DNA from: Escherichia coli | GTDB taxonomy: Bacteria; Pseudomonadota; Gammaproteobacteria; Enterobacterales; Enterobacteriaceae | Assembly: GCF_013315695.1 (NCBI RefSeq) | Contig: NZ_CP054353.1 | Strand: one strand, 5' to 3' | Length of the DNA stretch: 64,000 bases | Part shown: positions 1 to 31,167 of the stretch, piece by piece | How positions within the stretch are numbered: the first letter of the stretch is position 1 | Layout of the letters: each line of letters opens with the position of its first letter | The notes under the pieces: model-generated | What the model was told of the DNA's origin: nothing | Databases searched by the model: none | What the model saw: only the letters and a program-made list of their open reading frames with translations | Translations under genes and position numbers: made by a program

Positions 1-103
1 CGGCATTAATGCGCAAATAAGTCGCTATACTTCGGATTTTTGCCATGCTATTTCTTTACATCTCTAAAACAAAACATAACGAAACGCACTGCCGGACAGA
101 CAA

Positions 104-1291
104 ATGAACTTATCCCTACGACGCTCTACCAGCGCCCTTCTTGCCTCGTCGTTGTTATTAACCATCGGACGCGGCGCTACGCTGCCGTTTATGACCATTT
201 ACTTGAGTCGCCAGTACAGCCTGAGTGTCGATCTAATCGGTTATGCGATGACAATTGCGCTCACTATTGGCGTCGTTTTTAGCCTCGGTTTTGGTATCCT
301 GGCGGATAAGTTCGACAAGAAACGCTATATGTTACTGGCAATTACCGCCTTCGCCAGCGGTTTTATTGCCATTCCTTTAGTGAATAACGTGACGCTGGTG
401 GTGCTCTTTTTTGCCCTTATTAACTGCGCCTATTCCGTCTTTGCTACCGTGTTGAAAGCCTGGTTTGCCGACAATCTTTCGTCCACCAGCAAAACGAAAA
501 TCTTCTCAATCAACTACACCATGCTCAACATTGGCTGGACCATCGGTCCGCCGCTAGGCACGCTGTTGGTGATGCAGAGCATCAATCTGCCCTTCTGGCT
601 GGCAGCTATCTGTTCCGCGTTTCCCATGCTTTTCATTCAAATTTGGGTAAAGCGCAGCGAGAAAATCATCGCTACGGAAACAGGCAGTGTCTGGTCGCCG
701 AAAGTTTTATTACAAGATAAAGCACTGTTGTGGTTTACCTGCTCTGGCTTTCTGGCTTCTTTTGTTAGCGGCGCATTTGCTTCATGCATTTCACAATATG
801 TGATGGTGATTGCTGATGGTGATTTTGCCGAAAAGGTGGTCGCGGTTGTTCTTCCGGTGAATGCTGCCATGGTGGTTACGTTGCAATATTCCGTGGGCCG
901 CCGCCTTAACCCGGCTAACATCCGCGCGCTGATGACAGCAGGCACCCTCTGTTTCGTCATCGGGCTGGTCGGTTTTATTTTTTCCGGCAACAGCCTGCTA
1001 ATGTGGGGTATGTCAGCTGCGGTATTTACTGTCGGTGAAATCATTTATGCGCCGGGCGAGTATATGTTGATTGACCATATTGCACCGCCAGGAATGAAAG
1101 CCAGCTATTTTTCCGCTCAGTCTTTAGGCTGGCTTGGTGCGGCGATTAACCCATTAGTGAGTGGCATAGTGCTTACCAGTCTGCCGCCTTTCTCGCTGTT
1201 TATCATCTTAGCGTTGGTGATCGTTGCTGCGTGGGTGCTGATGTTAAAAGGAATTCGTGCAAGACCGTGGGGGCAGCCCGCGCTTTGTTGA
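104..1291 (+). CDS. ydeE: MFS-type transporter YdeE
   Basis: 395-aa ORF with multi-TM hydrophobic profile; sits immediately upstream of mgtS/dgcZ as in E. coli. Confidence 0.85.
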   Translation: MNLSLRRSTSALLASSLLLTIGRGATLPFMTIYLSRQYSLSVDLIGYAMTIALTIGVVFSLGFGILADKFDKKRYMLLAITAFASGFIAIPLVNNVTLVVLFFALINCAYSVFATVLKAWFADNLSSTSKTKIFSINYTMLNIGWTIGPPLGTLLVMQSINLPFWLAAICSAFPMLFIQIWVKRSEKIIATETGSVWSPKVLLQDKALLWFTCSGFLASFVSGAFASCISQYVMVIADGDFAEKVVAVVLPVNAAMVVTLQYSVGRRLNPANIRALMTAGTLCFVIGLVGFIFSGNSLLMWGMSAAVFTVGEIIYAPGEYMLIDHIAPPGMKASYFSAQSLGWLGAAINPLVSGIVLTSLPPFSLFIILALVIVAAWVLMLKGIRARPWGQPALC

Positions 1292-1417
1292 TTTAAGTCG
1301 AACACAATAAAAATTTAATTCAGCCTTCGTTTAGGTTACCTCTGCTAATATCTTTCTCATTGAGATGAAAATTAAGGTAAGCGAGGAAACACACCACACC
1401 ATAAACGGAGGCAAATA

Positions 1418-1513
1418 ATGCTGGGTAATATGAATGTTTTTATGGCCGTACTGGGAATAATTTTATTTTCTGGGTTTCTGGCCGCGTATTTCAGCCACAA
1501 ATGGGATGACTAA
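1418..1513 (+). CDS. mgtS: small inner-membrane regulatory protein MgtS (31 aa)
   Basis: ATG at 1418; reads MLGNMNVFMAVLGIILFSGFLAAYFSHKWDD then TAA; below the 60-aa ORF-track cutoff, found by direct reading. Confidence 0.8.
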   Translation: MLGNMNVFMAVLGIILFSGFLAAYFSHKWDD

Positions 1514-1543
1514 TGAACGGAGATAATCCCTCACCTAACCGGC

Positions 1544-1579
1544 CCCTTGTTACAACTGTGTACAAGGGGCCTGATTTTT
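1544..1579 (+). terminator. putative rho-independent terminator downstream of mgtS
   Basis: inverted repeat ccccttgta / tacaagggg followed by a T-run. Confidence 0.5.
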
Positions 1580-1588
1580 ATGACGGCG

Positions 1589-1686
1589 AAAAAAAACCGC
1601 CAGTAAACCGGCGGTGAATGCTTGCATGGATAGATTTGTGTTTTGCTTTTACGCTAACAGGCATTTTCCTGCACTGATAACGGATC
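1589..1686 (-). ncRNA. mgrR: MgrR small RNA (PhoPQ-regulated); ends approximate
   Basis: minus strand reads GCAGGAAAATGCCTGTTAGCG...CCGCCGGTTTACTGGCGG followed by a U-run (hairpin terminator); matches MgrR as I remember it; convergent with mgtS. Confidence 0.55.
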
Positions 1687-1731
1687 GTTGACACAGTAGC
1701 ATCAGTTTTCTCAATGAATGTTAAACGGAGC

Positions 1732-2622
1732 TTAAACTCGGTGAATCACGTTTTGTTCGTCAATAAACATGCAGCGATTCCTTCCGGTTTGCTTACCCTC
1801 ATACATTGCCCGGTCCGCTCTTCCAATGACCACATCCAGAGGCTCTTCAGGAAATGCGCGACTCACACCTGCTGTCACGGTAATGTTGATATGCCCTTCA
1901 GAATGTGTGATGGCATGGTTATCGACTAACTGGCAAATTCTGATACCTGCACGACATGCTTCTTCATCATTAGCCGCTTTGACAATAATGATAAATTCTT
2001 CGCCACCGTAGCGATAAACCGTTTCGTAATCGCGCGTCCAACTGGCTAAGTAAGTTGCCAGGGTGCGTAATACTACATCGCCGATTAAATGCCCGTAGGT
2101 ATCATTAACCAATTTAAATCGGTCAATATCCAACAACATTAAATAAAGATTCAGAGGATCAGCATTGCGTAACTGATGATCGAAGGATTCATCAAGAACC
2201 CGACGACCCGGCAATCCCGTCAGAACATCCATATTGCTACGGATCGTCAGCAAATAAATTTTGTAATCGGTTAATGCCGCAGTAAAAGAAAGCAACCCTT
2301 CCTGAAAAGCGTCGAAATGCGCGTCCTGCCAGTGATTTTCAACAATAGCCAGCATTAATTCCCGACCACAGTTATGCATATGTTGATGGGCAGAATCCAT
2401 TAGCCGAACGTAAGGTAATTCATCGTTATCGAGTGGCCCCAGATGATCAATCCACCGACCAAACTGGCACAGTCCATAAGAATGGTTATCCGTTATTTCT
2501 GGCTTACTGGCATCTCTCGCGACCACGCTGTGAAACATACTTACCAGCCACTGGTAGTGGGCATCGATAGCCTTATTGAGATTTAACAAGATGGCATCAA
2601 TTTCCGTTGTCTTCTTGATCAT
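1732..2622 (-). CDS. dgcZ: zinc-sensing diguanylate cyclase DgcZ (YdeH), GGDEF domain
   Basis: RYGGEEF motif in the C-terminal half; 296 aa when started at MIKKTTEIDAILLN; synteny. Confidence 0.9.
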   Translation of the reverse strand: MIKKTTEIDAILLNLNKAIDAHYQWLVSMFHSVVARDASKPEITDNHSYGLCQFGRWIDHLGPLDNDELPYVRLMDSAHQHMHNCGRELMLAIVENHWQDAHFDAFQEGLLSFTAALTDYKIYLLTIRSNMDVLTGLPGRRVLDESFDHQLRNADPLNLYLMLLDIDRFKLVNDTYGHLIGDVVLRTLATYLASWTRDYETVYRYGGEEFIIIVKAANDEEACRAGIRICQLVDNHAITHSEGHINITVTAGVSRAFPEEPLDVVIGRADRAMYEGKQTGRNRCMFIDEQNVIHRV

Positions 2623-2876
2623 TGCCACTCCTTTTTCACAGTTCCTTGTGCGCGCTATTCTAACGGGAGAAAAGCAAAATTACGTCAATATTTTCATAGA
2701 AATCCGAAGTTATGAGCCATCTCTGAGATAACATTGTGATTTAAAACAAAATCAGCAGATAAAAAAGTGTTTAATTCTATAAATTAACTCTGCATTATCG
2801 CAATTAAAAGGATGACAAATAGCATAACCCAATACCCTAATGGCCCAGTAGTTCAGGCCATCAGGCTAATTTATTT

Positions 2877-3269
2877 TTATTTCTGCAAATGAGTGACCCG
2901 AACGACGGCCGGCGCGCTTTTCTTATCCAGACTGCCGCTAATGTTGATCATCTGGTCCGGCTGAACTTCTCGTCCATCAAAGACGGCCGCAGGAATAACA
3001 ACATTAATTTCACCGCTCTTATCGCGAAAAACGTAACGGTCCTCTCCTTTGTGAGAAATCAAATTACCGCGTAGTGAAACCGAAGCGCCATCGTGCATGG
3101 TTTTTGCGAAATCAACGGTCATTTTTTTTGCATCGTCGGTTCCGCGATAGCCATCTTCTATTGCATGAGGCGGCGGTGGCGCTGCATCCTGTTTTAAACC
3201 GCCCGGGTCATCTGCCAACGCATAAGGCATGACAAGAAAACTTGCTAATACAATGGCCTGAAATTTCAT
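2877..3269 (-). CDS. ydeI: periplasmic OB-fold (YgiW/BOF family) protein YdeI
   Basis: 130-aa ORF with N-terminal signal peptide ([19 protein letters not shown]); synteny. Confidence 0.8.
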
Positions 3270-3634
3270 ACTGACTCCTTAATTGCGTTTGGTTTGACTT
3301 ATTAAGTCTGGTTGCTATTTTTATAATTGCCAAATAAGATTACTGCCAATTGTTATAAGGCATTTAAAATCAGGCAACTAGCTGTCAAATATTCAGAGAA
3401 TTTAACTCACTAAAGTTAAGAAGAAGATTAAAGAGTCTTAAACATATTTCAGAATAATCAGATTTATAAATTTGAAAATTATTATAACGGAAGGGTATAC
3501 AAAAAAAGTAATTTTGCTGGCGACTGCGAAACGGCATTCGCATTAGCGGTGAAGTTTGCCCTCGCCCAGCTGCTGCAATTACTGCTATAACGAGGCTGGT
3601 CTGGCGATAAATCCAGGCCAGCCATTGGTTGTGT

Positions 3635-5680
3635 TTATACGTTCAAGCCACGATGTTGCAGCATCGGCATAATCTGAGGTGCCTTACCGCGCCATTGTCG
3701 ATACAGGCGTTCCAGATCCTCGCTGTTACCTCTGGAAAGGATCGCCTCGCGAAAACGCAGCCCATTTTCACGCGTTAATCCGCCCTGCTCAACAAACCAC
3801 TGATAACCATCATCGGCCAACATTTGCGTCCACAGATAAGCGTAATAACCCGCGGCATATCCGCCACCAAAAATATGGGCGAAATAACTGCTGCGATAGC
3901 GTGGCGGTATAGCAGGAAGATCCATATTTTCCGCCACCAGCGCCCGCAATTCGAAATCATCGACATCCTGCATTGCTTCGTTTTCTTCCAGGCAATGCCA
4001 GCGCATATCGAGAAGTGCGGCGCTAAGCAGTTCGCTCATCTCATACCCTTTATTGAACAGGCTGGCATTACGCATTTTCTGTTGCAGTTCGTCAGGCATT
4101 GCTGCCCCGCTCTGATAATGCCGGGCGTAGCGAGCGAATACCTGCGGATGCGTTGCCCAGTGTTCGTTGATTTGCGACGGAAATTCGACAAAATCACGCG
4201 GCGTGTTGGTGCCGGAAAGCGTGGCATAACGCTGGCGGGCAAAAAGGCCGTGCAGCGTATGACCAAATTCATGGAATAAGGTTATTACATCATCCCAGAG
4301 TAACAACGCAGGCTCCCCAGCAGCGGGTTTCTGATAATTGCAGACGTTATAAATTACCGGGTGCGTTTCATTCAGCGTTGATTGCTCAACAAAATTGCCC
4401 ATCCATGCGCCGCCGCTTTTTGAATCACGGGCGAAGAAATCACCGTAAAATAACGCCAGCCCCACACCATTATGATCAAAAATTTCCCACACACGAACGT
4501 CAGGATGGTAGACAGGAATATCAAAACGTTCGACAAACTTAATACCGAAGAGCTGATTCGCAGTCCAGAATACGCCTTCATTCAACACCGTGTTTAATTC
4601 GAAATAAGGCTTGAGCTGCGCTTCATCGAGATCGAATTTATCACGTCTTACCTGCTCGGCATAAAATGCCCAGTCCCACGGCTGCGCGCTAAACCCGCCC
4701 TGCTGCTTATCGATAACCGCCTGTATGGAGGCTAATTCATCGCTCGCACGTTGACGCGCCGCTGGAACAATTTCCCGCATAAAGTTGAGCGCTGCTTCTG
4801 GCGTTTTTGCCATCTGATCGGCGATTTTCCATGCGGCATAATGAGGAAAACCAAGCAGTTTCGCCTGCTGCGCGCGGATCTCCACCAGACGTTGAATGAT
4901 AGCGCGGGTATCATTGGCATCATTTTTTTCCGCTCGCATCCAGCCCGCAGTAAACAGTTTTTCACGCGTCGCACGATCGCGCATTTCGGCAAGCGCCGGT
5001 TGTTGGGTGGTATTCAGCAGCGGAATCAGCCATTTGTTATCCAGACCTTTCTCGCGAGCCGCCTCTGCCGCCAGCACAATCTCTTGCTCACTCATTCCTG
5101 CCAGCTGCGCGATATCGTTCACAACCAGACCGCCGGATTTATTTGCTGCCAGTAACCGCTGGTTAAACTGGCTGGTCAGGGTCGCAGCTTCTGTATTCAG
5201 TACTTTTAATTTTGCTTTATCAGCTTGCGCAAGTTTGGCTCCGGCAAGGACAAAACGTTGATGAATCACCTCCACCAGGCGGATGGATTCACTATCAAGC
5301 CCCAGGGATTCACGGCGCTGCCAGACAGCATCTACCCGCGCGAATAATTCACCGTTCAGATAGATATCATTAGCCAGTTCCGCCAGTTCAGCGGAAAACT
5401 GTTCATCAAGACGCTGTAATTCATCATTGGTATGCGCCGCAGTCATCGCAAAAAAGACGCTGGTAACGCGGGTAAGTAATTCTCCGCTTTGTTCCAGTGC
5501 CAGAATAGTATTGTTGAAATCAGGCGTTTGCGAGTTAAGCGCGATGGCAGTAATTTCTGCCCGCTTTTGCAGCATTCCCTCATCGAATGCCGGGCGATAG
5601 TGATGATTGGCAATTTGATCAAAATGGGGAGCCAGATACGGCAGTGTGCTTTGCACAAGGAAAGGATTCATTGTTGTCAT
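3635..5680 (-). CDS. dcp: dipeptidyl carboxypeptidase II (M3 family zinc metallopeptidase)
   Basis: HEFGH zinc-binding motif; 681 aa when started at MTTMNPFLVQ; the ORF-track start is 22 codons further upstream. Confidence 0.9.
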   Translation of the reverse strand: MTTMNPFLVQSTLPYLAPHFDQIANHHYRPAFDEGMLQKRAEITAIALNSQTPDFNNTILALEQSGELLTRVTSVFFAMTAAHTNDELQRLDEQFSAELAELANDIYLNGELFARVDAVWQRRESLGLDSESIRLVEVIHQRFVLAGAKLAQADKAKLKVLNTEAATLTSQFNQRLLAANKSGGLVVNDIAQLAGMSEQEIVLAAEAAREKGLDNKWLIPLLNTTQQPALAEMRDRATREKLFTAGWMRAEKNDANDTRAIIQRLVEIRAQQAKLLGFPHYAAWKIADQMAKTPEAALNFMREIVPAARQRASDELASIQAVIDKQQGGFSAQPWDWAFYAEQVRRDKFDLDEAQLKPYFELNTVLNEGVFWTANQLFGIKFVERFDIPVYHPDVRVWEIFDHNGVGLALFYGDFFARDSKSGGAWMGNFVEQSTLNETHPVIYNVCNYQKPAAGEPALLLWDDVITLFHEFGHTLHGLFARQRYATLSGTNTPRDFVEFPSQINEHWATHPQVFARYARHYQSGAAMPDELQQKMRNASLFNKGYEMSELLSAALLDMRWHCLEENEAMQDVDDFELRALVAENMDLPAIPPRYRSSYFAHIFGGGYAAGYYAYLWTQMLADDGYQWFVEQGGLTRENGLRFREAILSRGNSEDLERLYRQWRGKAPQIMPMLQHRGLNV

Positions 5681-5816
5681 TTTCTTCTCCTGAACGCGAG
5701 GTGTTCCATAGCGTAGGCTTACTGATAACGGAGTGCAATCTTGCAAACCAGTATTACCCGCTCTTAAGCATCACGTGCTATGTTATTGACACACAAAAGC
5801 GTTGAGGAACAGTGAG

Positions 5817-6563
5817 ATGATCGTTTTAGTAACTGGAGCAACGGCAGGTTTTGGTGAATGCATTACTCGTCGTTTTATTCAACAAGGGCATAAAGTTATC
5901 GCCACTGGCCGTCGCCAGGAGCGGTTGCAGGAGTTAAAAGATGAACTGGGAGATAATCTGTATATCGCCCAACTGGACGTTCGCAACCGCGCCGCTATTG
6001 AAGAGATGCTGGCATCGCTCCCTGCCGAGTGGAGCAATATTGATATCCTGGTAAACAATGCCGGCCTGGCGTTGGGCATGGAGCCTGCGCATAAAGCCAG
6101 CATTGAAGACTGGGAAACGATGATTGATACCAACAACAAAGGCCTGGTATATATGACGCGCGCCGTCTTACCGGGTATGGTTGAACGTAATCATGGTCAT
6201 ATTATTAACATTGGCTCAACGGCAGGCAGCTGGCCGTATGCCGGTGGTAACGTTTACGGTGCGACGAAAGCGTTTGTTCGTCAGTTTAGCCTGAATCTGC
6301 GTACGGACCTGCATGGTACGGCGGTGCGCGTCACCGACATCGAACCGGGTCTGGTGGGTGGCACCGAGTTTTCCAATGTCCGCTTTAAAGGCGATGACGG
6401 TAAAGCGGAAAAAACCTATCAAAATACCGTTGCATTGACGCCAGAAGATGTCAGCGAAGCCGTCTGGTGGGTGTCAACGCTGCCTGCTCACGTCAATATC
6501 AATACCCTGGAAATGATGCCGGTTACCCAAAGCTATGCCGGACTGAATGTCCACCGTCAGTAA
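5817..6563 (+). CDS. ydfG: NADP-dependent 3-hydroxy acid dehydrogenase (short-chain dehydrogenase/reductase)
   Basis: N-terminal Rossmann motif VLVTGATAGFG; 248 aa from MIVLVTG. Confidence 0.9.
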   Translation: MIVLVTGATAGFGECITRRFIQQGHKVIATGRRQERLQELKDELGDNLYIAQLDVRNRAAIEEMLASLPAEWSNIDILVNNAGLALGMEPAHKASIEDWETMIDTNNKGLVYMTRAVLPGMVERNHGHIINIGSTAGSWPYAGGNVYGATKAFVRQFSLNLRTDLHGTAVRVTDIEPGLVGGTEFSNVRFKGDDGKAEKTYQNTVALTPEDVSEAVWWVSTLPAHVNINTLEMMPVTQSYAGLNVHRQ

Positions 6564-6651
6564 TTTTTATACCCGGCGTAACTGCCGGGTTATTGCTTGT
6601 CACAAAAAAGTGGTAGACTCATGCAGTTAACTCACTCACAAGCAAGAACGA

Positions 6652-7338
6652 ATGACCGTCGAAACGCAACTTAATCCCACACAGCCTGTCAATCAGCAGA
6701 TTTATCGTATTCTTCGTCGCGACATTGTCCATTGCCTGATTGCTCCAGGCACACCGTTGTCGGAAAAAGAAGTTTCTGTTCGTTTCAATGTGTCACGCCA
6801 GCCGGTTCGTGAAGCCTTTATTAAACTGGCGGAAAACGGTCTGATTCAAATTCGTCCGCAGCGTGGCAGCTACGTCAACAAAATTTCCATGGCCCAGGTG
6901 CGCAACGGCAGTTTTATCCGTCAGGCCATTGAGTGCGCGGTGGCGCGTCGGGCGGCGAGCATGATTACCGAAAGCCAGTGCTACCAACTGGAACAAAATC
7001 TTCACCAGCAACGCATTGCCATTGAGCGCAAGCAACTGGATGATTTTTTTGAACTTGATGACAACTTCCATCAACTCCTGACGCAGATTGCCGACTGTCA
7101 ACTGGCGTGGGATACCATTGAGAACCTGAAAGCGACCGTTGATCGCGTGCGCTATATGAGTTTCGACCACGTTTCTCCACCAGAAATGCTGTTACGCCAG
7201 CATCTTGAGATTTTCTCTGCCCTGCAAAAACGTGATGGCGATGCGGTAGAACGTGCAATGACGCAACATTTGCAGGAAATCAGCGAATCCGTGCGCCAGA
7301 TCCGCCAGGAAAACAGCGACTGGTTTAGCGAAGAGTAG
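6652..7338 (+). CDS. ydfH: GntR-family transcriptional regulator
   Basis: 228-aa ORF with N-terminal winged-HTH region and FCD-like C-terminal domain; synteny. Confidence 0.8.
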
Positions 7339-7515
7339 TTCATTTCCTCTCATCCCATCCGGGGTGAGAGTCTATTCGCCCCGCCTTATGGCTCATGCAT
7401 GCATCAAAAAAGATGTGAGCTTGATCAAAAACAAAAAATATTTCACTCGACAGGAGTATTTATATTGCGCCCGTTACGTGGGCTTCGACTGTAAATCAGA
7501 AAGGAGAAAACACCT

Positions 7516-7719
7516 ATGACGACCTACGATCGTAACCGTAACGCAATCACCACTGGCAGCCGTGTTATGGTTAGCGGCACCGGTCACACTGGCAAGATCC
7601 TGTCGATTGATACTGAAGGTCTGACCGCTGAGCAAATCCGCCGCGGAAAAACCGTAGTTGTTGAAGGTTGTGAAGAGAAACTGGCACCTCTGGACCTGAT
7701 TCGTCTCGGCATGAACTAA
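7516..7719 (+). CDS. ydfZ: small protein YdfZ (67 aa)
   Basis: 67-aa [24 protein letters not shown]...; good RBS (aggag) upstream; synteny. Confidence 0.8.
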
Positions 7720-7726
7720 GCGTGTG

Positions 7727-7757
7727 AATGCCGCCGATGGCGGCATTGCTTTTTTTA
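7727..7757. terminator. putative bidirectional rho-independent terminator between ydfZ and ydfI
   Basis: aatgccgcc gat ggcggcatt hairpin flanked by a T-run; ydfZ and ydfI are convergent. Confidence 0.5.
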
Positions 7758-9215
7758 CTTCACGGAATATTTCGCCACGGTCGCTTTCGCACCATGCGCT
7801 AATAAAGACAAGTACGCTTCCGTCACTTTTGCAGTAAACAAGCTATTGTCTGGCAAATCATCACCAAAGATCGCCTTAATCGCCAGCAATGACTGGACGC
7901 GCGCTTTCCCTTCGGCACTACTTTGTACAGCCTTCTGAATAACAGGTAACAGTGGGTCACTGATTTCTATCGGATTTCCCTGTTCATCAACACCACCGAC
8001 ATAACGCATCCAACCTGCGACGCCCAGCGCCAGCAGATCGAACTTGCTGTCATGCGCCAGATGCCAGCGAACAGAATCCAACATCCGCTGTGGCAATTTC
8101 TGGCTGCCATCCATAGCAATCTGCCAGGTTCGATGACGTAGCGCCGGGTTGCTATAGCGTTCAATTAATCGGTTAGCGTAATCTTGCAAATCAACGCCCT
8201 GCACTTTCAACGTCGGCGCTTGTTCCTGCAACATCAAGGCATACGCTGCATGACGATAATGTTCATCTTCCATGCAGTCATTAATGTGCTGATATCCGGC
8301 AAGATAACCCAGATACGCCAGGAATGAATGACTGCCGTTGAGCATGCGCAACTTCATCTCTTCATAAGGCAGCACATCACTAACCAGTTCGGCTCCCGCT
8401 TTTTCCCATTCCGGACGTCCGGCAACAAAGTTATCTTCTATTACCCACTGGCGGAAAGGTTCACAGGCAACGCCAGCAGGATCGCGCACACCGGTAAGTT
8501 GTTCGATTTTCGTCAGCATATCCTCTGTCACTGCGGGCACAATACGGTCCACCATTGTTGATGGGAAAGTCACGTTTTCTTCGATCCATTGTGCCAGTTT
8601 TACATCAACAGCTTGCGCGTAGGAAGTGACAACGTCACGCATAACATGACCGTTTTCTGGCATGTTGTCACATGACATGACGGTAAATGCGGGAAGTCCT
8701 GCCGCTTTACGGCGAGCCAGCGCCTCGACAATCACCCCTGTTGCAGTTTTCGGCTGGTGGGGATTTTGAACGTCGGCAACGACCATCGGGTGATCGAGCA
8801 TTAACTGTCCGGTCGCCGGAGAGTGGAAATACCCTTTTTCGGTGATTGTCAGAGAGACAATCGCGATTTGCGGTTCACACATCGCAGCCAACACGGTTTC
8901 TAAGCCATCAATCTGTACGTGCAAGGCTTTTTTAACGACGCCAACGACGCGAGCCGTCCACGCATCGGCCGACATTTCCGCAACGGTATAAAGATTATCT
9001 TGCTGTTGTAAATCGGCAATTTGCTGTTCGCCGCCGATTAAATTGACCTCATAATATCCCCAGTCACTGAAATGTTTTGTAGCAAGAATATCGGCATACA
9101 CGCCCTGATGCGCACGGTGAAATGCACCAAAGCCTAAATGAACAATTCTTGGGGCCAGGTTATTACGATCATAAACAGGGAGCGTCGCTTTTGCTGATAA
9201 CAAATTATTTCCCAT
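7755..9215 (-). CDS. ydfI: mannitol/fructuronate dehydrogenase-family oxidoreductase
   Basis: 486-aa ORF, long-chain mannitol dehydrogenase family by sequence character; synteny. Confidence 0.8.
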
Positions 9216-12513: not shown

Positions 12514-12740
12514 AAAATAATCTCGGTGTGAGATGCCTTACGTCTTCCAAGCCCCCTTCCTTGCCGTAAATGGAAAGATACATCTAATTATAGAATTTAT
12601 ATGTTTTACCCTACGGCAGTGCTGGCCATTCAATATCCTGTGCAGTTGACGTATCAACACGGTTCAGCAACACCCGATACTTCTTCCAGGCTTCCCGCAA
12701 CGAGGTTTCTTCCTCCGTTGCATATACAGCTCACCTTTTT

Positions 12741-13034
12741 TCACCCACGATTAACCAACAGCCAGACCAGCAGACACGCCACCACCGGCACAGCAAAATC
12801 CATCAGGCTTGCCACATCCCACGCACGCGGATCAAAACCGCCCCACCACGGCATATTCATACGCTTGCCATGCCCGAACATTTCAATCCAGCGATATTCT
12901 GCCTGGGTATGTTCACGCGCAATGAAGAACGTACAACCAGCTATCGCCCCGTAAGCCCAGTTTCCGGTAAAAAGACCAACCAGTACCTGCGCAGCCACAG
13001 CACAAAGTGCATGAAGGAAAGGTGTTATATCCAT
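12741..13034 (-). CDS. hypothetical small membrane protein (about 3 TM segments)
   Basis: 97-aa ORF with ATG preceded by AAGGAGG; three hydrophobic stretches; last gene of the stf operon. Confidence 0.45.
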   Translation of the reverse strand: MDITPFLHALCAVAAQVLVGLFTGNWAYGAIAGCTFFIAREHTQAEYRWIEMFGHGKRMNMPWWGGFDPRAWDVASLMDFAVPVVACLLVWLLVNRG

Positions 13035-13044
13035 TACGCCTCCT

Positions 13045-13749
13045 TTATCCGATATCGCTTCGGGAAACGGATAACAACTTTAATTCTGACTCAAGTTCAT
13101 CAACTCTTTCAGTCAGCTTCTGGATATGGTGAATCAGTGGAACAACCAGACGTTCGTACATTACACCTTCGGCAACAAGGCCATTGCTGGAAATGGTTTC
13201 CGGTGCATCATCTTCGTTGGCTGGTCGCCAGTGAACAAACTGAGGGGCAATTTCTCCTACTTCCTCGGCAATCAATCCATAGAATCCCCAGTCACGCCTG
13301 TCATTTTCGCATTGCGACCTGTACCACACAGGGCGCATCCTGAAAATGAGATCGGCGTGCTCTGAATCTATCGTCTCTACTGAATGTTTATAGCGGATAG
13401 ACGATGTTGACCGCAGCACAGACGAAATTGCAGGGTCAGGATTAAGATAAAGATTTGCCGCCGCTGTAGTTGTGCCCAATCCCCATAAATAAAACGCTTC
13501 ACGGCCAGTCAGCGGGTAAAAATCTCCGCCATAACGACCACTTTCCAGATCGTTCACTTCCACTTTGTTTTTCAGCTTATTATCAACTTCAGTTTTTGTG
13601 TATCTGGTGCTGATATCCTGCTTTGCACTGGCCATATCAGTCTGAAGCGTTGATACTTTTCCGTTAATAGAGGAAATATCTTCCTTTGCTTTACTAACAT
13701 CTCCCTTCAGCGTGGTGATGTCTCCCGGAATTACTGTTGATGTAGCCAT
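13045..13749 (-). CDS. tail-fibre-like protein: N-terminal coiled coil plus C-terminal intramolecular-chaperone-like domain
   Basis: 234-aa ORF; ATG with GAGG upstream; heptad-like N-terminus; C-terminal segment GFYGLIAEEV...GVMYERLVVPLIHHIQKL...LESELKLL resembles the self-cleaving chaperone domain of endosialidase-type fibres. Confidence 0.5.
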   Translation of the reverse strand: MATSTVIPGDITTLKGDVSKAKEDISSINGKVSTLQTDMASAKQDISTRYTKTEVDNKLKNKVEVNDLESGRYGGDFYPLTGREAFYLWGLGTTTAAANLYLNPDPAISSVLRSTSSIRYKHSVETIDSEHADLIFRMRPVWYRSQCENDRRDWGFYGLIAEEVGEIAPQFVHWRPANEDDAPETISSNGLVAEGVMYERLVVPLIHHIQKLTERVDELESELKLLSVSRSDIG

Positions 13750-13758
13750 TTCTCTACC

Positions 13759-14040
13759 TCACATCCAGCCACGAAGTTGATGCTCAACAGCAACCGCGTA
13801 TTCATCGAATAATGACGATATTTGCGTATCCTTAATAATGCGCACGTTTACAAAATATCCATCTTCCTTAACACATACCGGTTCGCCATCTTCAGTCAGC
13901 TCTCCGGTTTCTTTGTACACGTTACCTATCACATCAATCAGAATATCATCCTGCATCGACTCGTCATTATAATAGCCAATACTTCCCATAAAGGCCGAAA
14001 AGTCGGCCCTGTCGGCAAATTTGAGTGTTAAATCTTTCAT
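13759..14040 (-). CDS. hypothetical protein, possibly a tail-fibre assembly chaperone
   Basis: 93-aa acidic ORF; its ATG overlaps the reconstructed pre-IS1 stop of stf. Confidence 0.35.
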   Translation of the reverse strand: MKDLTLKFADRADFSAFMGSIGYYNDESMQDDILIDVIGNVYKETGELTEDGEPVCVKEDGYFVNVRIIKDTQISSLFDEYAVAVEHQLRGWM

Positions 14041-14246
14041 TAGATTGACTCCCCCATCTGAGCATCAGTCAATGCCTTGTGCCAAATACGCAGATTTCGA
14101 ACGTGTCCAAATAGGTGACGGTTGCCGGATGATGATTGACCACCAATATTAATGAAGCCTCCTGTATATTTGTGTTTTTTATAAGGAGAAAGGTGATGCT
14201 GCCAACTTACTGATTTAGTGTATGATGGTGTTTTTGAGGTGCTCCA

Positions 14247-14522
14247 GTGGCTTCTGTTTCTATCAGCTGTCCCTCCTGTTCAGCTACTGACGGGGTGGTG
14301 CGTAACGGCAAAAGCACCGCCGGACATCAGCGCTATCTCTGCTCTCACTGCCGTAAAACATGGCAACTGCAGTTCACTTACACCGCTTCTCAACCCGGTA
14401 CGCACCAGAAAATCATTGATATGGCCATGAATGGCGTTGGATGCCGGGCAACAGCCCGCATTATGGGCGTTGGCCTCAACACGATTTTACGTCACTTAAA
14501 AAACTCAGGCCGCAGTCGGTAA
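14247..14522 (+). CDS. insA: IS1 InsA
   Basis: 91-aa [26 protein letters not shown]... (zinc-finger InsA). Confidence 0.9.
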
Positions 14523-14944
14523 CCTCGCGCATACAGCCGGGCAGTGACGTCATCGTCTGCGCGGAAATGGACGAACAGTGGGGCTATGTCGGGGCTAAAT
14601 CGCGCCAGCGCTGGCTGTTTTACGCGTATGACAGGCTCCGGAAGACGGTTGTTGCGCACGTATTCGGTGAACGCACTATGGCGACGCTGGGGCGTCTTAT
14701 GAGCCTGCTGTCACCCTTTGACGTGGTGATATGGATGACGGATGGCTGGCCGCTGTATGAATCCCGCCTGAAGGGAAAGCTGCACGTAATCAGCAAGCGA
14801 TATACGCAGCGAATTGAGCGGCATAACCTGAATCTGAGGCAGCACCTGGCACGGCTGGGACGGAAGTCGCTGTCGTTCTCAAAATCGGTGGAGCTGCATG
14901 ACAAAGTCATCGGGCATTATCTGAACATAAAACACTATCAATAA
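14441..14944 (+). CDS. insB: IS1 InsB
   Basis: 167-aa ORF overlapping insA in the -1 frame, typical IS1 arrangement. Confidence 0.9.
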
Positions 14945-14954
14945 GTTGGAGTCA

Positions 14955-17228
14955 TTACCAAGGAGAAACTACCTTAGCACCAATATTACCGTTAACCACA
15001 ACACACAATTCTCGACTTTCTGTGAATCTAAAGCCGATAATGCTTTTTCTCTCTGGTCGTTCTATAACGCTTTTATATTCTATTTTAGTGCCTTTACCAT
15101 TTGTAATGATTGCGCGTGCTCCCAAAGATGTATACCCCAAATACATATAACTTTCATCTGCAATTTCAGTTGTATCTCCCGTAGTGGAAATATTAAGAAT
15201 ACGTGCGCTACCTTCTTTGTTTGGCGATTCATCCCAATTGGTATTAACTTCTGCTAATGAACTAATAGCGGGATTGCACCAATTTAGAGAAATGGGGACC
15301 GTTACAATATCGCTGGCGCGTGTTACAGGGGATGCGCCTGTTATAATAAACGATGAAGCGCATGCCCCACCTTCAACTTGAGGGGTCGCAATATAAATAT
15401 AATCATCCGCGCCAGTGCCCACTCCTTTTGCCGGGGCATACTGAACCATTCCACCTATCATATTTTCTGTATCAAGTGCCTTAATTGTCGCCTCAAAAAA
15501 GATCCATTTGCTTGCTTCATCTTTAACAGCCCTTGCAGTAATGCGATTAGCGGCACCACCCGTCTTATCAATAGATAAATCTGTCGTATTTAAGTAAGCG
15601 TCACCTAAGAATGTGTAGGTAGAACCATCATAGTTTTCAAATCGTAATCGGCATCTTAAATTTGGAGTGCCACTTTGCACCCTGCATGATATGGTTACAT
15701 ACTTTTCTCCGCCTGTTACATCAAAACCTTTACTGCCGGAAACGGTTACTATGTTAATCGCTGAAATTTGCCCTACCATTTCTGGTTTTAATGTAAATTT
15801 TGCGTACTGGAATCCGAAATCATCTACACCTGATGCACTTAAGATCATATTTGACGACTTGTTCCATTTAGTCGGATTTGTTGAATTGATTAGCAGGTTA
15901 GTTCTTTGCCCCTCAATAAGCAGGCCATCACGTTCAAATCGTGGCTCGTCAATGGCAGCCTCTGTCAGCACACCAGATTTATTAATGTAAGTTGCTTTCG
16001 ATGCGCGTTTAAACTTTACAATCTTGTCGCCAGGCATTGTTATTTCATCGTCGCCAATAACAATTTTTTTATATGATGGCGAAAAGCCCGTAATCATATC
16101 CAGTGAATCATTAAACGGTATCCACACATCGGGCAACGGCTGCAAAACTTGTTTATACGGCTCCGCTGCCTGGCTTGCATACTCTCTGGCTGCGTCTTCA
16201 CTTGCTTTAGCTGCTGTCTGGCTTGCTGCCGATGCTTGCGCCGAGTTCGCCGCCGCAGTCTCGCTCGCCTTTGCGTTGGTTTCACTGGTTTTTGCTGCTT
16301 TTTGACTGTTAGCTGATGCAGTGGCAGAAGCAGCCGCCGCGCTTGCAGAACTGGCTGCGGCACTCTCGCTTTGGGCCGCTGCATCCTGACTGCTTTTCGC
16401 CGCAGTTTCACTGGCTTTGGCATTCGTTTCGCTGGTCTTCGCTGCCGTCTGGCTGGACTTTGCGTTAGTTTCACTCGTCTTCGCAGCTTTCTGGCTGTTA
16501 GCCGCAGCAGTTGCTGATCCAGCTGCTGAAGTCGCAGAACCGGCTGCCGCGCTCTCGCTTTGGGCTGCTGCAACCTGGCTGTTTTTTGCCGCAGTTTCAC
16601 TGGCTTTGGCATTCGTTTCGCTGGTTTTCGCTGCCGTCTGGCTGGACTTTGCGTTGGTTTCGCTCGTCTTTGCGGCTGTCTCGCTATTTTTCGCGTTGGT
16701 TTCTGATTTTTTGGCTGCTGTCGCGGAGTTTGCCGATGCAGTCTTTGAGGTCGCTGCCGCCTGTGCACTATTAGCTGCATTCGTTTCTGAGGTTTTCGCC
16801 GCGTTCTTCGATGATGCCGCTGCAGTTTCGGATTTCTTTGCCGCCGCTGCGCTCTGAGAGGCGGCTTCAGCGTTGCGTGCCGCTTCTTCCACCATTTCCT
16901 CAAAACGACGCAATGCCTCCGGCATGACATCATCTTCCGTCATGGCACCGAGAAAATCATTCAGCGTACCTGGTCTGGAACCTTCATAGACGGTAATGGT
17001 TCCGGCATGTGAAGGCGGAAAACCTTCAACCAGCAGGGTGACGCTGTACTGGCCATACTCAACATCCATGCTGTAACGCCCGGCTTCATCCGGATTTTCA
17101 GAGGCCACTGTGTTGACCAGTACCGTGGTGCTGTTACGCTTTGCCTTCAGTTGAATAGTGCAGTTCTGTATTGGTTTTCCCGCACCATCTTTCAGCACAC
17201 CTGAGATTTTTACTGCTGCCATATCCAC
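14955..17228 (-). CDS. stf: side tail fibre protein Stf, C-terminus replaced by IS1 read-through
   Basis: N-terminus MAAVKISGVLKDGAGKPIQNCTIQLKA... matches lambda Stf as remembered; Ala/Ser/Thr-rich repeat shaft; stop codon lies inside the IS1 end. Confidence 0.8.
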   Translation of the reverse strand: MDMAAVKISGVLKDGAGKPIQNCTIQLKAKRNSTTVLVNTVASENPDEAGRYSMDVEYGQYSVTLLVEGFPPSHAGTITVYEGSRPGTLNDFLGAMTEDDVMPEALRRFEEMVEEAARNAEAASQSAAAAKKSETAAASSKNAAKTSETNAANSAQAAATSKTASANSATAAKKSETNAKNSETAAKTSETNAKSSQTAAKTSETNAKASETAAKNSQVAAAQSESAAAGSATSAAGSATAAANSQKAAKTSETNAKSSQTAAKTSETNAKASETAAKSSQDAAAQSESAAASSASAAAASATASANSQKAAKTSETNAKASETAAANSAQASAASQTAAKASEDAAREYASQAAEPYKQVLQPLPDVWIPFNDSLDMITGFSPSYKKIVIGDDEITMPGDKIVKFKRASKATYINKSGVLTEAAIDEPRFERDGLLIEGQRTNLLINSTNPTKWNKSSNMILSASGVDDFGFQYAKFTLKPEMVGQISAINIVTVSGSKGFDVTGGEKYVTISCRVQSGTPNLRCRLRFENYDGSTYTFLGDAYLNTTDLSIDKTGGAANRITARAVKDEASKWIFFEATIKALDTENMIGGMVQYAPAKGVGTGADDYIYIATPQVEGGACASSFIITGASPVTRASDIVTVPISLNWCNPAISSLAEVNTNWDESPNKEGSARILNISTTGDTTEIADESYMYLGYTSLGARAIITNGKGTKIEYKSVIERPERKSIIGFRFTESRELCVVVNGNIGAKVVSPW

Positions 17229-17230
17229 TC

Positions 17231-17262
17231 CACAAAAAAGCCCGCCTGAACCGGCGGGCTGT
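17231..17262 (-). terminator. putative rho-independent terminator downstream of lom
   Basis: minus strand agcccgcc ggttca ggcgggct followed by TTTTTT. Confidence 0.5.
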
Positions 17263-17286
17263 CATAACACTGTGTTACCTGGCTAA

Positions 17287-17886
17287 TCAGAATTTATAAC
17301 CGACACCAACGATGAAACCGTCAGTGCGCCAGTCGCCACTGCCGGAACCTTCATAAGCAATATCAATGGCCACGGATTCGGTCGGGTTAAACTGCACGCC
17401 AGCCCCCCATGCCAGAGACGTGTCGCTGTGGCGACCGTCATCACTTCCGGTCAGCACATCGTGCGTTTTCCCCTTGTTGTCAGTTACGCGGATATAATCT
17501 CCGGAGAAAGTCGAAACACGGCTGTAAGCCATACCCGCCATCGCATACGCGCTGAACCATTCATTCACGCGCACAGACGGCCCCACCATCACGCTGAACC
17601 AGCGGTTACGCACGGAATCTTCATGCCAGCGGGTATCGCTGTAACGGGTAAGCTGGCGATTCTTGTCTCCTGCATAGCTGAATGACGTCACCATCCCCAG
17701 TGTGTCCGTAAACTCATAACGGTATTTCACGTTAATCCCGTTCAGATCATCGCTGCCGGGAACGTTCGTCGAGGCATGAAGATACCCCGCGCTCAGCGTG
17801 GACTGATGTTCAGATGCCCATGCAGGCGCACCGGATACGGCCAGACAAATGGCTGCGGAAAAAATGGCGGCACAAACTTTACGCAT
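17287..17886 (-). CDS. lom: outer-membrane protein Lom (Ail/Lom family)
   Basis: 199 aa; signal peptide [24 protein letters not shown]; C-terminal VGVGYKF beta-barrel end. Confidence 0.9.
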
Positions 17887-17953
17887 AATTACCTCTCGCT
17901 TTTCTGCAATAAAAAAGGCGCCATTTCTGGCGCCCGTATATGGGTTATAAAAT

Positions 17954-18793
17954 TCAGCTGATACTGATGCCTGCGGTGGCTTTCTTCATCACCACAACCA
18001 GCAGATCGCTGATACTTGCTGTGGGATACCAGTCATTTACCAGCCATGCTGACACCGAAAACTCCAGCGTCATGTGACCGTGACCGGCAGGCATATCAAT
18101 AACGCCACTGTAAATCAGCGTATTATCCAGCGCGGTACGGTTATAAATTTCAGCACCGTTTTTCCGCACTATCAGACGGCATGAGGAGTAAATATCAGTA
18201 TGCTCTCTCTCATGTTTAGCGCCGCTGAATGCCACCGCCGGAATAACAATCTGCCGGTCAAACGGCTGATCGTCATAAACCCTGACGGTAATGGTCCCTG
18301 ATGGCCACCGTTCCGGTGCACGGGAGTCCCGGGGGAAAGCTTTGCCCACTGTTTTAACGAGATCGCCTTCAATCTGGTTCGCGGACAGTTTTCCCAGAAC
18401 CCGACAGTTCTCGTTAATCGTGACGTTGTTGAGCGTCCCGGAGTTCGCATTCACGTTACCACTGATATCCGCATTTTTAGCAGTCAGCTTTCCGTCCGGT
18501 GTCAGGGAAAATGCCGGTGGATTTCCACCACTGGTAATGGTGGGGGCCGTCAGGCGCTTCAGGAACACGTCGTTCATGAATATCTGGTTGCCCTGCGCCA
18601 CAAACATCGGCGTTTCATTCCCGTTTGCCGGGTCAATAAACGCGATACGATTGGCGGCAACCAGAAACTGACTCAGTTTGCCTTCCTCTGTATCCTCCAT
18701 GCTGAGGCCAATACCCGCGACATAATGTTTGCCGTCTTTGGTCTGCTCAATTTTGACAGCCCACATGGCATTCCATTTATCGTTGGCATCCTT
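17954..18793 (-). pseudogene. tail tip/host-specificity protein J, C-terminal about 280 codons only
   Basis: reads ...[40 protein letters not shown]...[12 protein letters not shown], lambda-J-like C-terminus; upstream part replaced by IS end at 18794. Confidence 0.8.
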
Positions 18794-18801
18794 TGTAGTG
18801 G

Positions 18802-21704
<2,903 letters not shown>

Positions 21705-21723
<19 letters not shown>

Positions 21724-22127
21724 TTTCCCGCAGAAACAGGCTCTGCAGGCCCGGCGTCATCTGCCTGTTCAGGGGCATTATTCACCACAAACTCAGACAT
21801 TCCGGACAGACGTAACACCACGTTTTCAGCCTGAGCAATTGCCTCCGTGGGCCAGGTGGTAAGCACTTCCTGCTCAATCTGCGTAATGGCTTCATTCATG
21901 GACGGCAGCTTTGTCTTCTGCGGATGGTTATGCCACAGAGACATCGCCACCAGAAACGCCCCGCCTCTGATAAGATCCTCTACAGACACCTGCAGGTTGC
22001 CGCTGGATTCAGCCTTTTTTTCCTGCTCTTTCAACCAGGCAAGATGCTCAATACGCTGCAGGGCTGACAGTTCAGAAAGCGTGACGGTCACGCCGTTATG
22101 TTCAAATGATTCTGTTTTCAGGAACAT
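21705..22127 (-). CDS. G: tail assembly chaperone G
   Basis: 140 aa; MFLKTESFEHNGVTVTLSELSALQRIEHLA...; overlaps T. Confidence 0.9.
21723..21729 (-). promoter_or_regulatory. programmed -1 ribosomal frameshift slippery site GGGAAAG (G to G-T)
   Basis: heptamer GGGAAAG on minus strand at the G/T overlap. Confidence 0.75.
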
Positions 22128-22142
22128 CGCTGACTCTCCGGA

Positions 22143-22883
22143 TTAACTGGCGGTGACGGTGATTTCTGCAACCGCAGCAAACTCACCATTACCGGATACA
22201 ACCGGAATGTTGACCTTGCCTGCAGCAACGCCGTTCACGGTGATGGTCATACCACTGACCGACACGGTGGCTTTTGTTTTATCCGCTGACACCGCACGGA
22301 AGCTCTTGTCGGTTGCGCCTTCCGGCTGGAAGGCCACGGTCAGCGTGGTGCTCTGCCCTTTCACTACGGAAGCACTGGCTGGCGTTACCGTCATGCCGGT
22401 GGCCGCTGTTACCGTGCTGCGATCTTCTGCCATCGACGGGCGTCCCACATTGGTGACCTTCACCGTGCGGGTGATCACTTCCTTCGCCGTCACCGCTTTA
22501 CCGATACTGCTGACCCAGCCACGGAACACATCGACCGTGCCGTTCGGGAAGCGGATTTTATAGGCACGGGTATCACCTTCATTAAACCACGCCAGCAGCG
22601 CCTGCTGCCCCTGCTCTCCGGGCATCCACGCCAGCGTGAAGCTGGTATCTCCGGCTGATTTCTGCCCCTGCCCGGTCGCAGTCCAGTCCGCATCCTCATC
22701 ATCGAGATAACTGTCGTCATAGGACTCAGCGGTCAGTTCGCCGGGCGTCAGGTCTTTAACTTTTGCCAGACGCGACCAGTCAACGTCTGAAAGCGGGTTC
22801 GCATAAGGGTCACCGCTCCCCTTATAAACCCACAGGGTGGTCCCGGCACCTTTCACCGGCATTACAGGATTTGGTACAGGCAT
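22143..22883 (-). CDS. V: major tail protein V
   Basis: 246 aa from [36 protein letters not shown]... Confidence 0.9.
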
Positions 22884-22890
22884 AGCGTCC

Positions 22891-23286
22891 TCACATTTCA
22901 TAGGTAATGACATAAGTCAGATCGGCTGAACTCCACAGGCCCGCATCATCGTCGCGCCGGTAGTCATAGCCACTGGCCACCATACTGGTGATCAAATCTG
23001 ACAGTGCCGGGATATCGCTCATCACCGGATAAATCCGGGACTCCATCCACGAATCCAGCTCTGAATCCGGCACCTGAGCAGGCAGGAAAACTTCAATATG
23101 CAGCTCCGCCTGCCAGGTATCGCTGTCCAGCTCTTCGCCCGTGTATTCAGCGCCGGTGAGATAAACGGCAATTGCCGGAAAATCTTCCTCATCAAAAACA
23201 GCGGGGCGACCATCAAAAAGCGTCGCCCCGGTGTCATGCTTCTCCAGTGCATCCAGTACGGCTGCACGGAGTTCAGTATGTTTCAT
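22891..23286 (-). CDS. U: tail terminator protein U
   Basis: 131 aa; [22 protein letters not shown]... Confidence 0.9.
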
Positions 23287-23861
23287 CGCTTTATTACCAT
23301 TCTCAGTTGATGCTGCAGCGCATAGCCCAGCTCTTTCGGAAGACGCTCACGCCGTATCCGTTCAATATTCTGTTTAAACGCCGTGGTCAGTGGCACCGCC
23401 ATCGGGATTTTCACCACATCAATGGGGTAACGGTTTTTCCCGGCCACACGCTGCATGACATGCCACCGGCCATTTTTCAGTTGCTGAATAAACGCGCCGG
23501 GAATACGACGGTTTCCCACCACAAGCACGCTGCCGCCACCTTTCAGGGATGAACGCTGCCCCTTTTTACGACGCCTGCGTCGGGACAGGACAACCCGCGC
23601 ATTACCCAGCTTGATTACGGGCAAATCCCCCCGGTTAACCTTGATTCTGGCCTGCGGATTTTTAACCGTGGCCCTTTTCAGCCTGGCCCTTTCCTTTACC
23701 AGTTTCCGGCGTACCTTTGTCTCACGGGCAACCTGTGACGCCGACTGCGATATCGCGGATGAAGCAACGCGGTTAATGGCCATTGCGGCGGCACCAGGCA
23801 CCGCCGTTTTGCTGATACGGCTGAGGTTTTCAACGGCCTGCTCAAGACCCTGTATGGCCAT
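23283..23861 (-). CDS. Z: tail completion protein Z
   Basis: 192 aa from MAIQGLEQAVENLSRISKTAVPGAAAMAINR... Confidence 0.85.
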   Translation of the reverse strand: MAIQGLEQAVENLSRISKTAVPGAAAMAINRVASSAISQSASQVARETKVRRKLVKERARLKRATVKNPQARIKVNRGDLPVIKLGNARVVLSRRRRRKKGQRSSLKGGGSVLVVGNRRIPGAFIQQLKNGRWHVMQRVAGKNRYPIDVVKIPMAVPLTTAFKQNIERIRRERLPKELGYALQHQLRMVIKR

Positions 23862-23917
23862 ACATCCCCCTTTCAACGGCCTGCTCAAGACCTTTTATGG
23901 CCATACATCCCCCTTTC
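23832..23917. repeat. 43-bp tandem duplication (2 copies, 2 mismatches) spanning the RBS, start codon and first 10 codons of Z
   Basis: AACGGCCTGCTCAAGACCCTGTATGGCCATACATCCCCCTTTC then AACGGCCTGCTCAAGACCTTTTATGGCCATACATCCCCCTTTC. Confidence 0.8.
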
Positions 23918-24269
23918 AGCGGCGACGGTTAACGGCAGGCGGAACGCCACGCCCAAGCCAGAGATGACAGCTTCCGCCATCATCCGGCGATACCCGGTCT
24001 ATCCAGAAGTTTTCCTCACCGATGGTCAGCGTGTCTCCACGCCGCAGCTGCCGCACCTCATCAGTCCGGACAAACAGGGACGGGCTGGAGCCTTCAACGC
24101 GCACGCCCTGTCCGGCATAGCTGATATTTTCAGGGTCATCAAAAACACCACGTATTACTGCGCCGGACTGCTCACCGGATGTCATGGTGGCTGACGTTCC
24201 CATGTACCCGCGTATCGTTTCATCGGCGCGGGCAATGGCAGCATCGAACAGGTTATCGAAATCAGCCAC
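23916..24269 (-). CDS. FII: head-tail joining protein FII
   Basis: 117 aa; MADFDNLFDAAIARADETIRGYMGTSA... Confidence 0.9.
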   Translation of the reverse strand: MADFDNLFDAAIARADETIRGYMGTSATMTSGEQSGAVIRGVFDDPENISYAGQGVRVEGSSPSLFVRTDEVRQLRRGDTLTIGEENFWIDRVSPDDGGSCHLWLGRGVPPAVNRRR

Positions 24270-24280
24270 AGCGCCTCCCG

Positions 24281-24676
24281 TTATTGCATTCTGGCCAGGC
24301 CACGTTCTGTCATTTCAGCTGCCACACCGGCAGAGACACGGAACGCCGTTCCCGGCAGCACAAATGCCACAGCCTCATCCCGCGTGGCGTGAAGTGCATC
24401 AGTATGCAGCGTCACCAGTGCCACAACCGTGACCAGATCAGCCGTATCAGTCACGGTATCCGGCTGCGCTGATACAACCTCATTTTCATGTCCGGTCAGC
24501 GCATTTTCCGGGCTGACAGATGTGTCCTGACCGGCAGCGTCATCCGTGTCATCAAGCTCCTCTTCCAGCTCTGCCACACGGAGCACCAGTTCTTCTTTCG
24601 TCCCCGTCAGGCTGACATCACGGTTCAGTTGCTCACCCAGCACCTGAAGACGGGCAATCAGTTCATCTTTCGTCAT
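24281..24676 (-). CDS. FI: DNA-packaging accessory protein FI
   Basis: about 131 aa from MTKDELIARLQVLGEQLNRDVSLTGTKEEL... Confidence 0.85.
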   Translation of the reverse strand: MTKDELIARLQVLGEQLNRDVSLTGTKEELVLRVAELEEELDDTDDAAGQDTSVSPENALTGHENEVVSAQPDTVTDTADLVTVVALVTLHTDALHATRDEAVAFVLPGTAFRVSAGVAAEMTERGLARMQ

Positions 24677-24717
24677 GGACTCCTCCACAAAGAGAAAATG
24701 GCCCCGAAGGGCCATGA

Positions 24718-25743: not shown

Positions 25744-25798
25744 AAAAAAATCCCGTAAAAAAAGCCGCACAGGCGGCCTTTAGTGATGAAGGGTAAAG

Positions 25799-26131: not shown

Positions 26132-26140
26132 AAACATCCC

Positions 26141-27460: not shown

Positions 27461-31141
<3,681 letters not shown>

Positions 31142-31167
<26 letters not shown>

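Follow-up and report, generated by a model that had tools for sequence, protein, structure and literature searches.

The locus between ydeI and dcp raises the question of what became of ydeJ, the gene that stands between them in Escherichia coli K-12. The window analyzed here is a 64,000-nucleotide stretch of E. coli chromosome (contig NZ_CP054353.1) that is colinear with K-12 MG1655 from ydeE onwards. Open reading frame calling identified an intact ydeI at 2877–3269 on the minus strand, which encodes a 130-residue YdeI/BOF-family OB-fold stress protein. Its coding sequence is 99.0% identical to K-12 at the nucleotide level, and it is annotated as WP_000671726.1 in a genome that is 100% identical over the stretch. 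The intact dcp gene, also on the minus strand, encodes a 681-residue peptidyl-dipeptidase and occupies 3635–5680 according to the ORF call and the annotation in the identical genome. The mechanical ORF extends to 5746, and 5680 is the start annotated in the identical genome; over 3635–5680 the nucleotide identity to K-12 is 97.6%. The spacer runs from the base next to the ydeI start codon (3269) to the base before the dcp stop codon (first base 3635) and measures 365 bp (3270–3634). The spacer is 36.2% G+C and its left 241 bp are 27.4% G+C, compared to 48.1% for the whole window. The order in K-12 MG1655 is ydeI (b1536), ydeJ (b1537; 519 bp, 172 codons, plus strand), and dcp (b1538), and the distance between ydeI and dcp is 837 bp compared to 365 bp in the window. 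An earlier note on this DNA had given that order, had expected a CinA-family gene of about 172 codons in the slot, and had reported only 365 bp of AT-rich sequence in its place. The K-12 genome bears out that order and the expected gene, and the absence of ydeJ from the window is real except for its tail. The protein encoded by the 172-codon K-12 ydeJ scores 162 bits against the Pfam CinA family PF02464 (E = 9e-48; cut-off 23.5). The spacer is almost certainly what a single, simple chromosomal deletion of 475 bp left behind in the ancestry of the strain's lineage.

The window and K-12 were compared by affine-gap global alignment, a check against a reference that the earlier note had proposed. 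The alignment contains one 475-bp gap, and the rest of the spacer is aligned. The gap covers K-12 L002 6738–7212 (NC_000913.3 1,624,737–1,625,211), begins 36 bp 5′ of the ydeJ GTG start codon, and ends past the first base of codon 147. Codons 1–146 of ydeJ are missing from the window. On the left, 3270–3510 aligns end to end with K-12 L002 6499–6737 at 91.7% identity, and the only indels are one of 3 bp and one of 1 bp. This segment is the kept part of the divergent ydeI–ydeJ intergenic region, and it contains the ydeI upstream region together with any ydeJ upstream DNA that lies beyond the 36 bp preceding the start codon of ydeJ. The deletion junction lies within 3509–3512, and the breakpoint at 3510/3511 is ambiguous by one A. 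The window reads ACAAAAAAAGTAA joined to TTTTGCTGGCGAC, and the corresponding K-12 sequences are ...ACAGAAAAAGCAA followed by ATCACC at the left breakpoint and ...GGTTATGCA followed by TTTTGCTGG at the right breakpoint. Comparison of the two K-12 breakpoints (...AAAAAGCAA before ATCACC and ...TTATGCA before TTTTGCT) reveals a single nucleotide, A, in common at the join, and the GCA triplets near the breakpoints are out of register with the deletion product. With K-12 as the stand-in for the true ancestor, we found no multi-base direct repeat shared by the two breakpoints. There is no foreign DNA at the junction, as the K-12 alignment has zero unaligned bases. A repeat search of the junction did not detect an IS remnant, IS-like terminal inverted repeats, a target-site duplication, or direct repeats, and the inverted repeats within 3200–3700 are weak, AT-rich ones only. 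These data identify a clean deletion with almost no homology that is neither IS-mediated nor a replacement by foreign DNA. The 1-nt homology points to end-joining or replication slippage as the probable mechanism. The deletion took away the ydeJ ribosome-binding region and start codon along with codons 1–146 of 172. It spared the AT-rich intergenic DNA next to ydeI, a dead 25-codon ydeJ tail, and the hairpin between ydeJ and dcp, and both neighboring genes are intact.

The right side of the junction carries the ydeJ 3′ remnant (3511–3590, plus strand). It consists of 2 nt of codon 147, 25 codons at 3513–3587 (FAGDCETAFALAVKFALAQLLQLLL), and a TAA stop codon at 3588–3590. The earlier note had read the frame ending in ...KKSNFAGDCETAFALAVKFALAQLLQLLL with a stop at about 3588..3590 as a protein C terminus with no upstream body, and this frame is indeed the end of ydeJ. 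The tail is identical to the 3′ end of K-12 ydeJ (7213–7292) at 76 of 80 nt (95.0%) in the same position and orientation, and its 25 residues match positions 148–172 of the 175 positions in NF002972, the YdeJ equivalog model, with E = 2.1e-6. The match in place and the match to the model together exclude a chance resemblance. The arrangement of ydeJ is also conserved, between ydeI and dcp on the plus strand and convergent with dcp. The tail peptide is FAGDCETAFALAVKFALAQLLQLLL in the window compared to FAGDCETVLALAVRFALAQLLQLLL in K-12. Of the four nucleotide differences, three are nonsynonymous (V>A, L>F, and R>K), as would be expected in the absence of selection, although the number is small. 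The remnant represents only the C-terminal 15% of ydeJ, and it scores 27.6 bits on NF002972 against a cut-off of 201, compared to 329 bits for full-length K-12 YdeJ. The 52-codon open frame has no Pfam match. No in-frame ATG, GTG, or TTG in the remnant frame gives an ORF of at least 30 residues, and the sole in-frame start codon is a GTG located 14 codons ahead of the stop. The score below the cut-off, the lack of a Pfam match, and the lack of the start codon show that this is a gene fragment and not a functional YdeJ family member. A tail without its start codon is not expected to be translated, which makes it a pseudogene fragment. We did not detect a second ydeJ in the 64-kb window, where a tblastn search with YdeJ matched the remnant alone, and close relatives of the strain, such as CFSAN061771, have one partial ydeJ match genome-wide.

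The distribution of the two forms was determined in 5,426 complete E. coli genomes. Of these, 3,607 (66%) carry full-length ydeJ, scored as a match to 80% or more of the gene. The junction was detected with an 80-bp probe centered on it (window 3471–3550) at an E-value limit beyond the reach of a 40-nt half-match. The probe identified 1,761 genomes, and every match is contiguous and at least 95% identical. About 58 genomes fall into neither class at the thresholds used. The identical junction in 1,761 of 5,426 genomes establishes the deletion as a common inherited allele, carried by roughly one in three sequenced E. coli, and excludes both an assembly error and a mutation private to this strain. 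The E. coli core genome does not include ydeJ, which is full-length in 66% of the complete genomes and dead in at least 32%. The earlier note had named two observations that would count against its reading, the same spacer in other genomes and a ydeJ located elsewhere. The same spacer does occur in these 1,761 genomes, yet the reading stands because all of them carry the same ydeJ tail. The gene has not moved elsewhere, as judged from the tblastn search of the window and the single partial match in close relatives. Four genomes, including GF131, MS 21-1, and MSB1_4I, are 100% identical to the window over 2870–4200, and ST648 strains are 99.4% identical over the same interval. Among the matches listed, the spacers of deleted alleles are 95–100% identical to the window compared to 91.6–92.6% for alleles that retain ydeJ. 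These two spacer haplotype groups indicate that the deletion rides on its own old haplotype, consistent with one old event. A single origin of the deletion is probable from the shared junction and the haplotype linked to it, and recombination may have spread the alleles between lineages.

The same locus carries a second, nested deletion that removes most of ydeI. Among the matches listed in the spacer search, those of many genomes cover the spacer's right part alone. The nested junction in FDAARGOS_1251 reads GGTCCGGCTGAA joined to TTTGAAAATTATTATAACGG, which connects window-equivalent position 2965 to 3471 with 2 nt of homology at the join. The deletion removes about 505 bp (window-equivalent 2966–3470), comprising the first ~101 codons of ydeI and ~200 bp upstream, and it is seen in L003 at 2914–3046. 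An 80-bp probe for the nested junction identified 1,038 of the 1,761 genomes with the ydeJ junction, including ATCC 11775, Nissle 1917, and MS20674, and the same double-deletion pattern is found in 536, UM146, and ST131 isolates. We take the group of 536, UM146, Nissle 1917, ATCC 11775, and ST131 to be phylogroup B2. The window's own allele, with ydeJ deleted and ydeI intact, is carried by about 723 genomes (13%), a value obtained by subtraction (1,761 − 1,038). The nested deletion is always on the ydeJ-deleted background, and the order of events is therefore clear, with ydeJ lost first. The locus is decaying stepwise. The background that had lost ydeJ later lost most of ydeI through the nested deletion in a group of genomes that includes 536, UM146, Nissle 1917, ATCC 11775, and ST131 strains. 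The right edge of the nested deletion falls midway along an AT-rich imperfect palindrome of 17 nt (window 3453–3480). The locus was also found in a few records labeled as plasmids (for example, NZ_CP141085.1, 385,579 bp), with the ydeJ junction in three places and the nested junction in two. These records are probably chromosomal fragments or mislabeled replicons.

Homologues outside E. coli give independent support for the direction of the change. Among the matches listed, Enterobacter chuandaensis and Lelliottia nimipressuralis each have a 172-residue YdeJ orthologue with 55–56% identity, and in both species ydeJ is located about 1.1 kb from a divergent YdeI homologue (62–63% identity). The contig scan with YdeJ, whose listing was dominated by the generic pattern AESCTGGK, yielded Enterobacter and Lelliottia orthologues at 55–60% identity plus distant CinA proteins among the matches listed. 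Salmonella Typhimurium 14028s also has ydeJ (STM14_1830, renamed rdsA; PMC7387798). The presence of ydeJ homologues in Enterobacter, Lelliottia, and Salmonella indicates that the intact gene is ancestral. The short spacer is the derived form, because the tail of a gene cannot predate the gene.

The opposite polarity would make the short spacer ancestral, with ydeJ inserted in K-12-like lineages and the tail no remnant at all. The short form is frequent (1,761 genomes), and it is present in 536, UM146, Nissle 1917, ATCC 11775, ST131, and ST648, strains of phylogroups B2 and F that are often regarded as early branching. However, the 80 nt at the right of the junction are 95% identical to the end of ydeJ, run in frame to the same stop codon, and encode a C-terminal match to the HMM, and genomes into which ydeJ had never been inserted could not contain the 3′ end of the gene. 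The location of ydeJ beside ydeI homologues in Enterobacter and Lelliottia and its presence in Salmonella (PMC7387798) also contradict this polarity, and we consider it extremely improbable. The probability that the gap is an assembly or sequencing artefact of one genome is smaller still and close to negligible, given the same junction in 1,761 independent complete genomes and the four genomes that are 100% identical over 2870–4200. A third alternative is recurrent deletion at a fragile site, with many independent origins. The region is AT-rich and contains the 17-nt imperfect palindrome at 3453–3480, and the right edge of the nested deletion falls exactly there, which suggests that the region is deletion-prone. 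The 1-nt homology at the ydeJ junction, in contrast, provides nothing that would steer repeat events to the same base. Each of the 1,761 matches to the junction probe has 95% identity or more across its 80 bp, and the deleted alleles have a distinct linked spacer haplotype. Recurrence is thus very unlikely. The evidence favors a single inherited deletion. The gene order differs from K-12 through this common allele and not through an error or an unusual element, and the locus is a case of ordinary gene decay with no sign of a new element.

The DNA that remains on either side of the junction was analyzed for regulatory content. A G+C-rich hairpin that is terminator-like on the plus strand is located at 3594–3623, where the ydeJ remnant and dcp converge. 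Its stem is 11 bp long with 8 G–C pairs, and AUUGGUUGUGUUUAU follows it. The predicted folding energies are −25.6 kcal/mol for the plus strand (z = −5.7) and −18.2 kcal/mol for the minus strand (z = −3.7). The plus-strand tail, ATTGGTTGTGTTTAT, is T-rich but interrupted, and the minus-strand tail on the dcp side, TCGTTATAG, is a poor U-tract. The hairpin is kept in K-12 with small differences, which are one stem position changed from C to T (giving a G–U pair), loop changes, and a 1-nt indel. The gap between ydeJ and dcp is the segment of the locus most diverged from K-12 (86% identity). Sigma-70-like matches on the plus strand at 3294–3321 and 3343–3370 have counterparts in K-12, and the hexamers of 3343–3370 correspond to a 10/12 match there. 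The scans of the window and K-12 did not reveal promoter-like matches above chance, their count being no higher than in shuffled sequence. No Rfam 15 covariance model matched the spacer at E ≤ 1. The only Rfam match in 1–8000 at this limit is the sRNA MgrR (STnc560, 280 bits) at 1507–1720 on the minus strand, which has the same location as in K-12, with mgtS/mgtT on one side and dgcZ on the other. The surviving DNA next to ydeI would include any element that regulates ydeI; RcdA reportedly binds the ydeI–ydeJ spacer, and YdeI is reported to be stress-induced (PMC3535384). An exact RcdA box (TTGTnnACA) was not found in the K-12 ydeI–ydeJ spacer.

A further reading is that the remnant has been reused, with the ydeJ upstream region driving a transcript of ~100–250 nt that ends at the 3594–3623 hairpin and serves as an sRNA or encodes a micro-peptide. 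The deletion begins just 36 bp before the start codon, so a promoter located further upstream would survive, and the hexamers at 3343–3370 with their 10/12 counterpart in K-12 and the well-folding hairpin are the elements that such a transcript would use. The Salmonella ydeJ promoter is active and supercoiling-sensitive (PMC7387798). These points are countered by promoter-like matches that are no commoner than in shuffled sequence, by the absence of an Rfam match at E ≤ 1, by a coding potential limited to the GTG 14 codons before the stop, and by tail substitutions that are mostly nonsynonymous. In addition, the nested deletion removes the promoter-like sites in 1,038 genomes, which shows that the sites are dispensable. 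Reuse of the remnant is therefore highly improbable.

Several other differences from K-12 were noted elsewhere in the window. The segment at 12722–31159 places about 18.4 kb where K-12 has 1.4 kb (1,634,421–1,635,839) inside the cryptic prophage Qin, and the many large minus-strand ORFs in this segment indicate that the Qin-like prophage of the strain is much more complete. The Qin segments in common with K-12 are 99.3–99.9% identical, whereas the chromosomal flanks are only 97.8–98.0% identical. About 4.8 kb at 42678–47478 is not in K-12 and lies at K-12 position 1,647,358, in the ydfW/ydfX area of Qin. A rearranged IS2-related stretch is located near the intQ end (50965–54471); it includes about 2.5 kb absent from K-12, and its 51300–51991 portion is inverted compared to IS2E of K-12. 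The rspA gene (ORF 56850–57893, minus strand) lacks 204 bp at 57696/57697 that are present in K-12 (1,654,774–1,654,977). This loss corresponds to 68 codons in frame and leaves an open frame of about 336 residues compared to 404 in K-12.

The consequences of ydeJ loss depend on the function of its product. YdeJ is one of three E. coli proteins with a CinA/PncC domain, and it is reported to be without NMN deamidase activity and to have substitutions at catalytic positions (PMC3855486). PncC (YgaD) is the active copy, so NMN deamidation would probably be unaffected by the loss of ydeJ. In Salmonella, negative supercoiling represses the ydeJ promoter (PMC7387798). The Salmonella ydeJ deletion mutant has more negatively supercoiled DNA, hence the name rdsA, and RdsA reportedly reduces negative supercoiling (PMC7387798). 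RefSeq names the product of ydeJ and of the remnant either '2-oxo-tetronate isomerase', the label of NF002972, or 'hypothetical protein'. We rejected the first name as a functional clue for YdeJ. In the literature searched, the term belongs to OtnI/YgbM (b2739), a hydroxypyruvate-isomerase-type protein of an unrelated family, and a link of this activity to any CinA-domain protein was not found. The label on NF002972 is probably a curation error, and the RefSeq product name for ydeJ should not be taken as a function. ST131 and other major successful lineages tolerate the loss of the gene, which suggests that ydeJ is dispensable in E. coli, and its loss appears to carry little or no fitness cost. 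A more speculative proposal is that the loss of ydeJ and then ydeI in the 536, Nissle 1917, and ST131 group was non-neutral and shifted the supercoiling set-point, possibly with an orphan promoter that produces an sRNA from the 80-nt tail and the hairpin. This proposal draws on the more negatively supercoiled DNA of Salmonella rdsA mutants (PMC7387798), and we consider it very unlikely. The deletion strains, including the 536, Nissle 1917, and ST131 group that is also without ydeI, are natural nulls for testing the role of RdsA in supercoiling.

The remnant is a feature that is already annotated in RefSeq. The pseudogenes V9Z47_RS13650 (NZ_CP146670.1) and ACHP5R_RS11250 (NZ_CP172134.1) have the identical sequence and coordinates (window 3510–3590, 81 nt), and PGAP describes the 81-nt CDS as 'incomplete; partial in the middle of a contig; missing N-terminus'. 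The double-deletion allele of FDAARGOS_1251 retains the ydeJ junction and the remnant unchanged and is 100% identical to window 3469–3634, but both ydeI and ydeJ are dead in that allele, whereas ydeI is intact in the window. The pncC gene (ygaD) belongs to the same CinA/PncC family as ydeJ, but it is at a different locus outside the window and encodes an active NMN deamidase (PMC3855486). The closest known counterpart is K-12 ydeJ itself (b1537), which occupies the same slot on the same strand, has the last 25 codons and the stop codon at 95% nucleotide identity, and is followed by the same downstream hairpin. Compared to this gene, the window is without the 36 bp before the start codon and without codons 1–146, and no YdeJ protein can be made from it.
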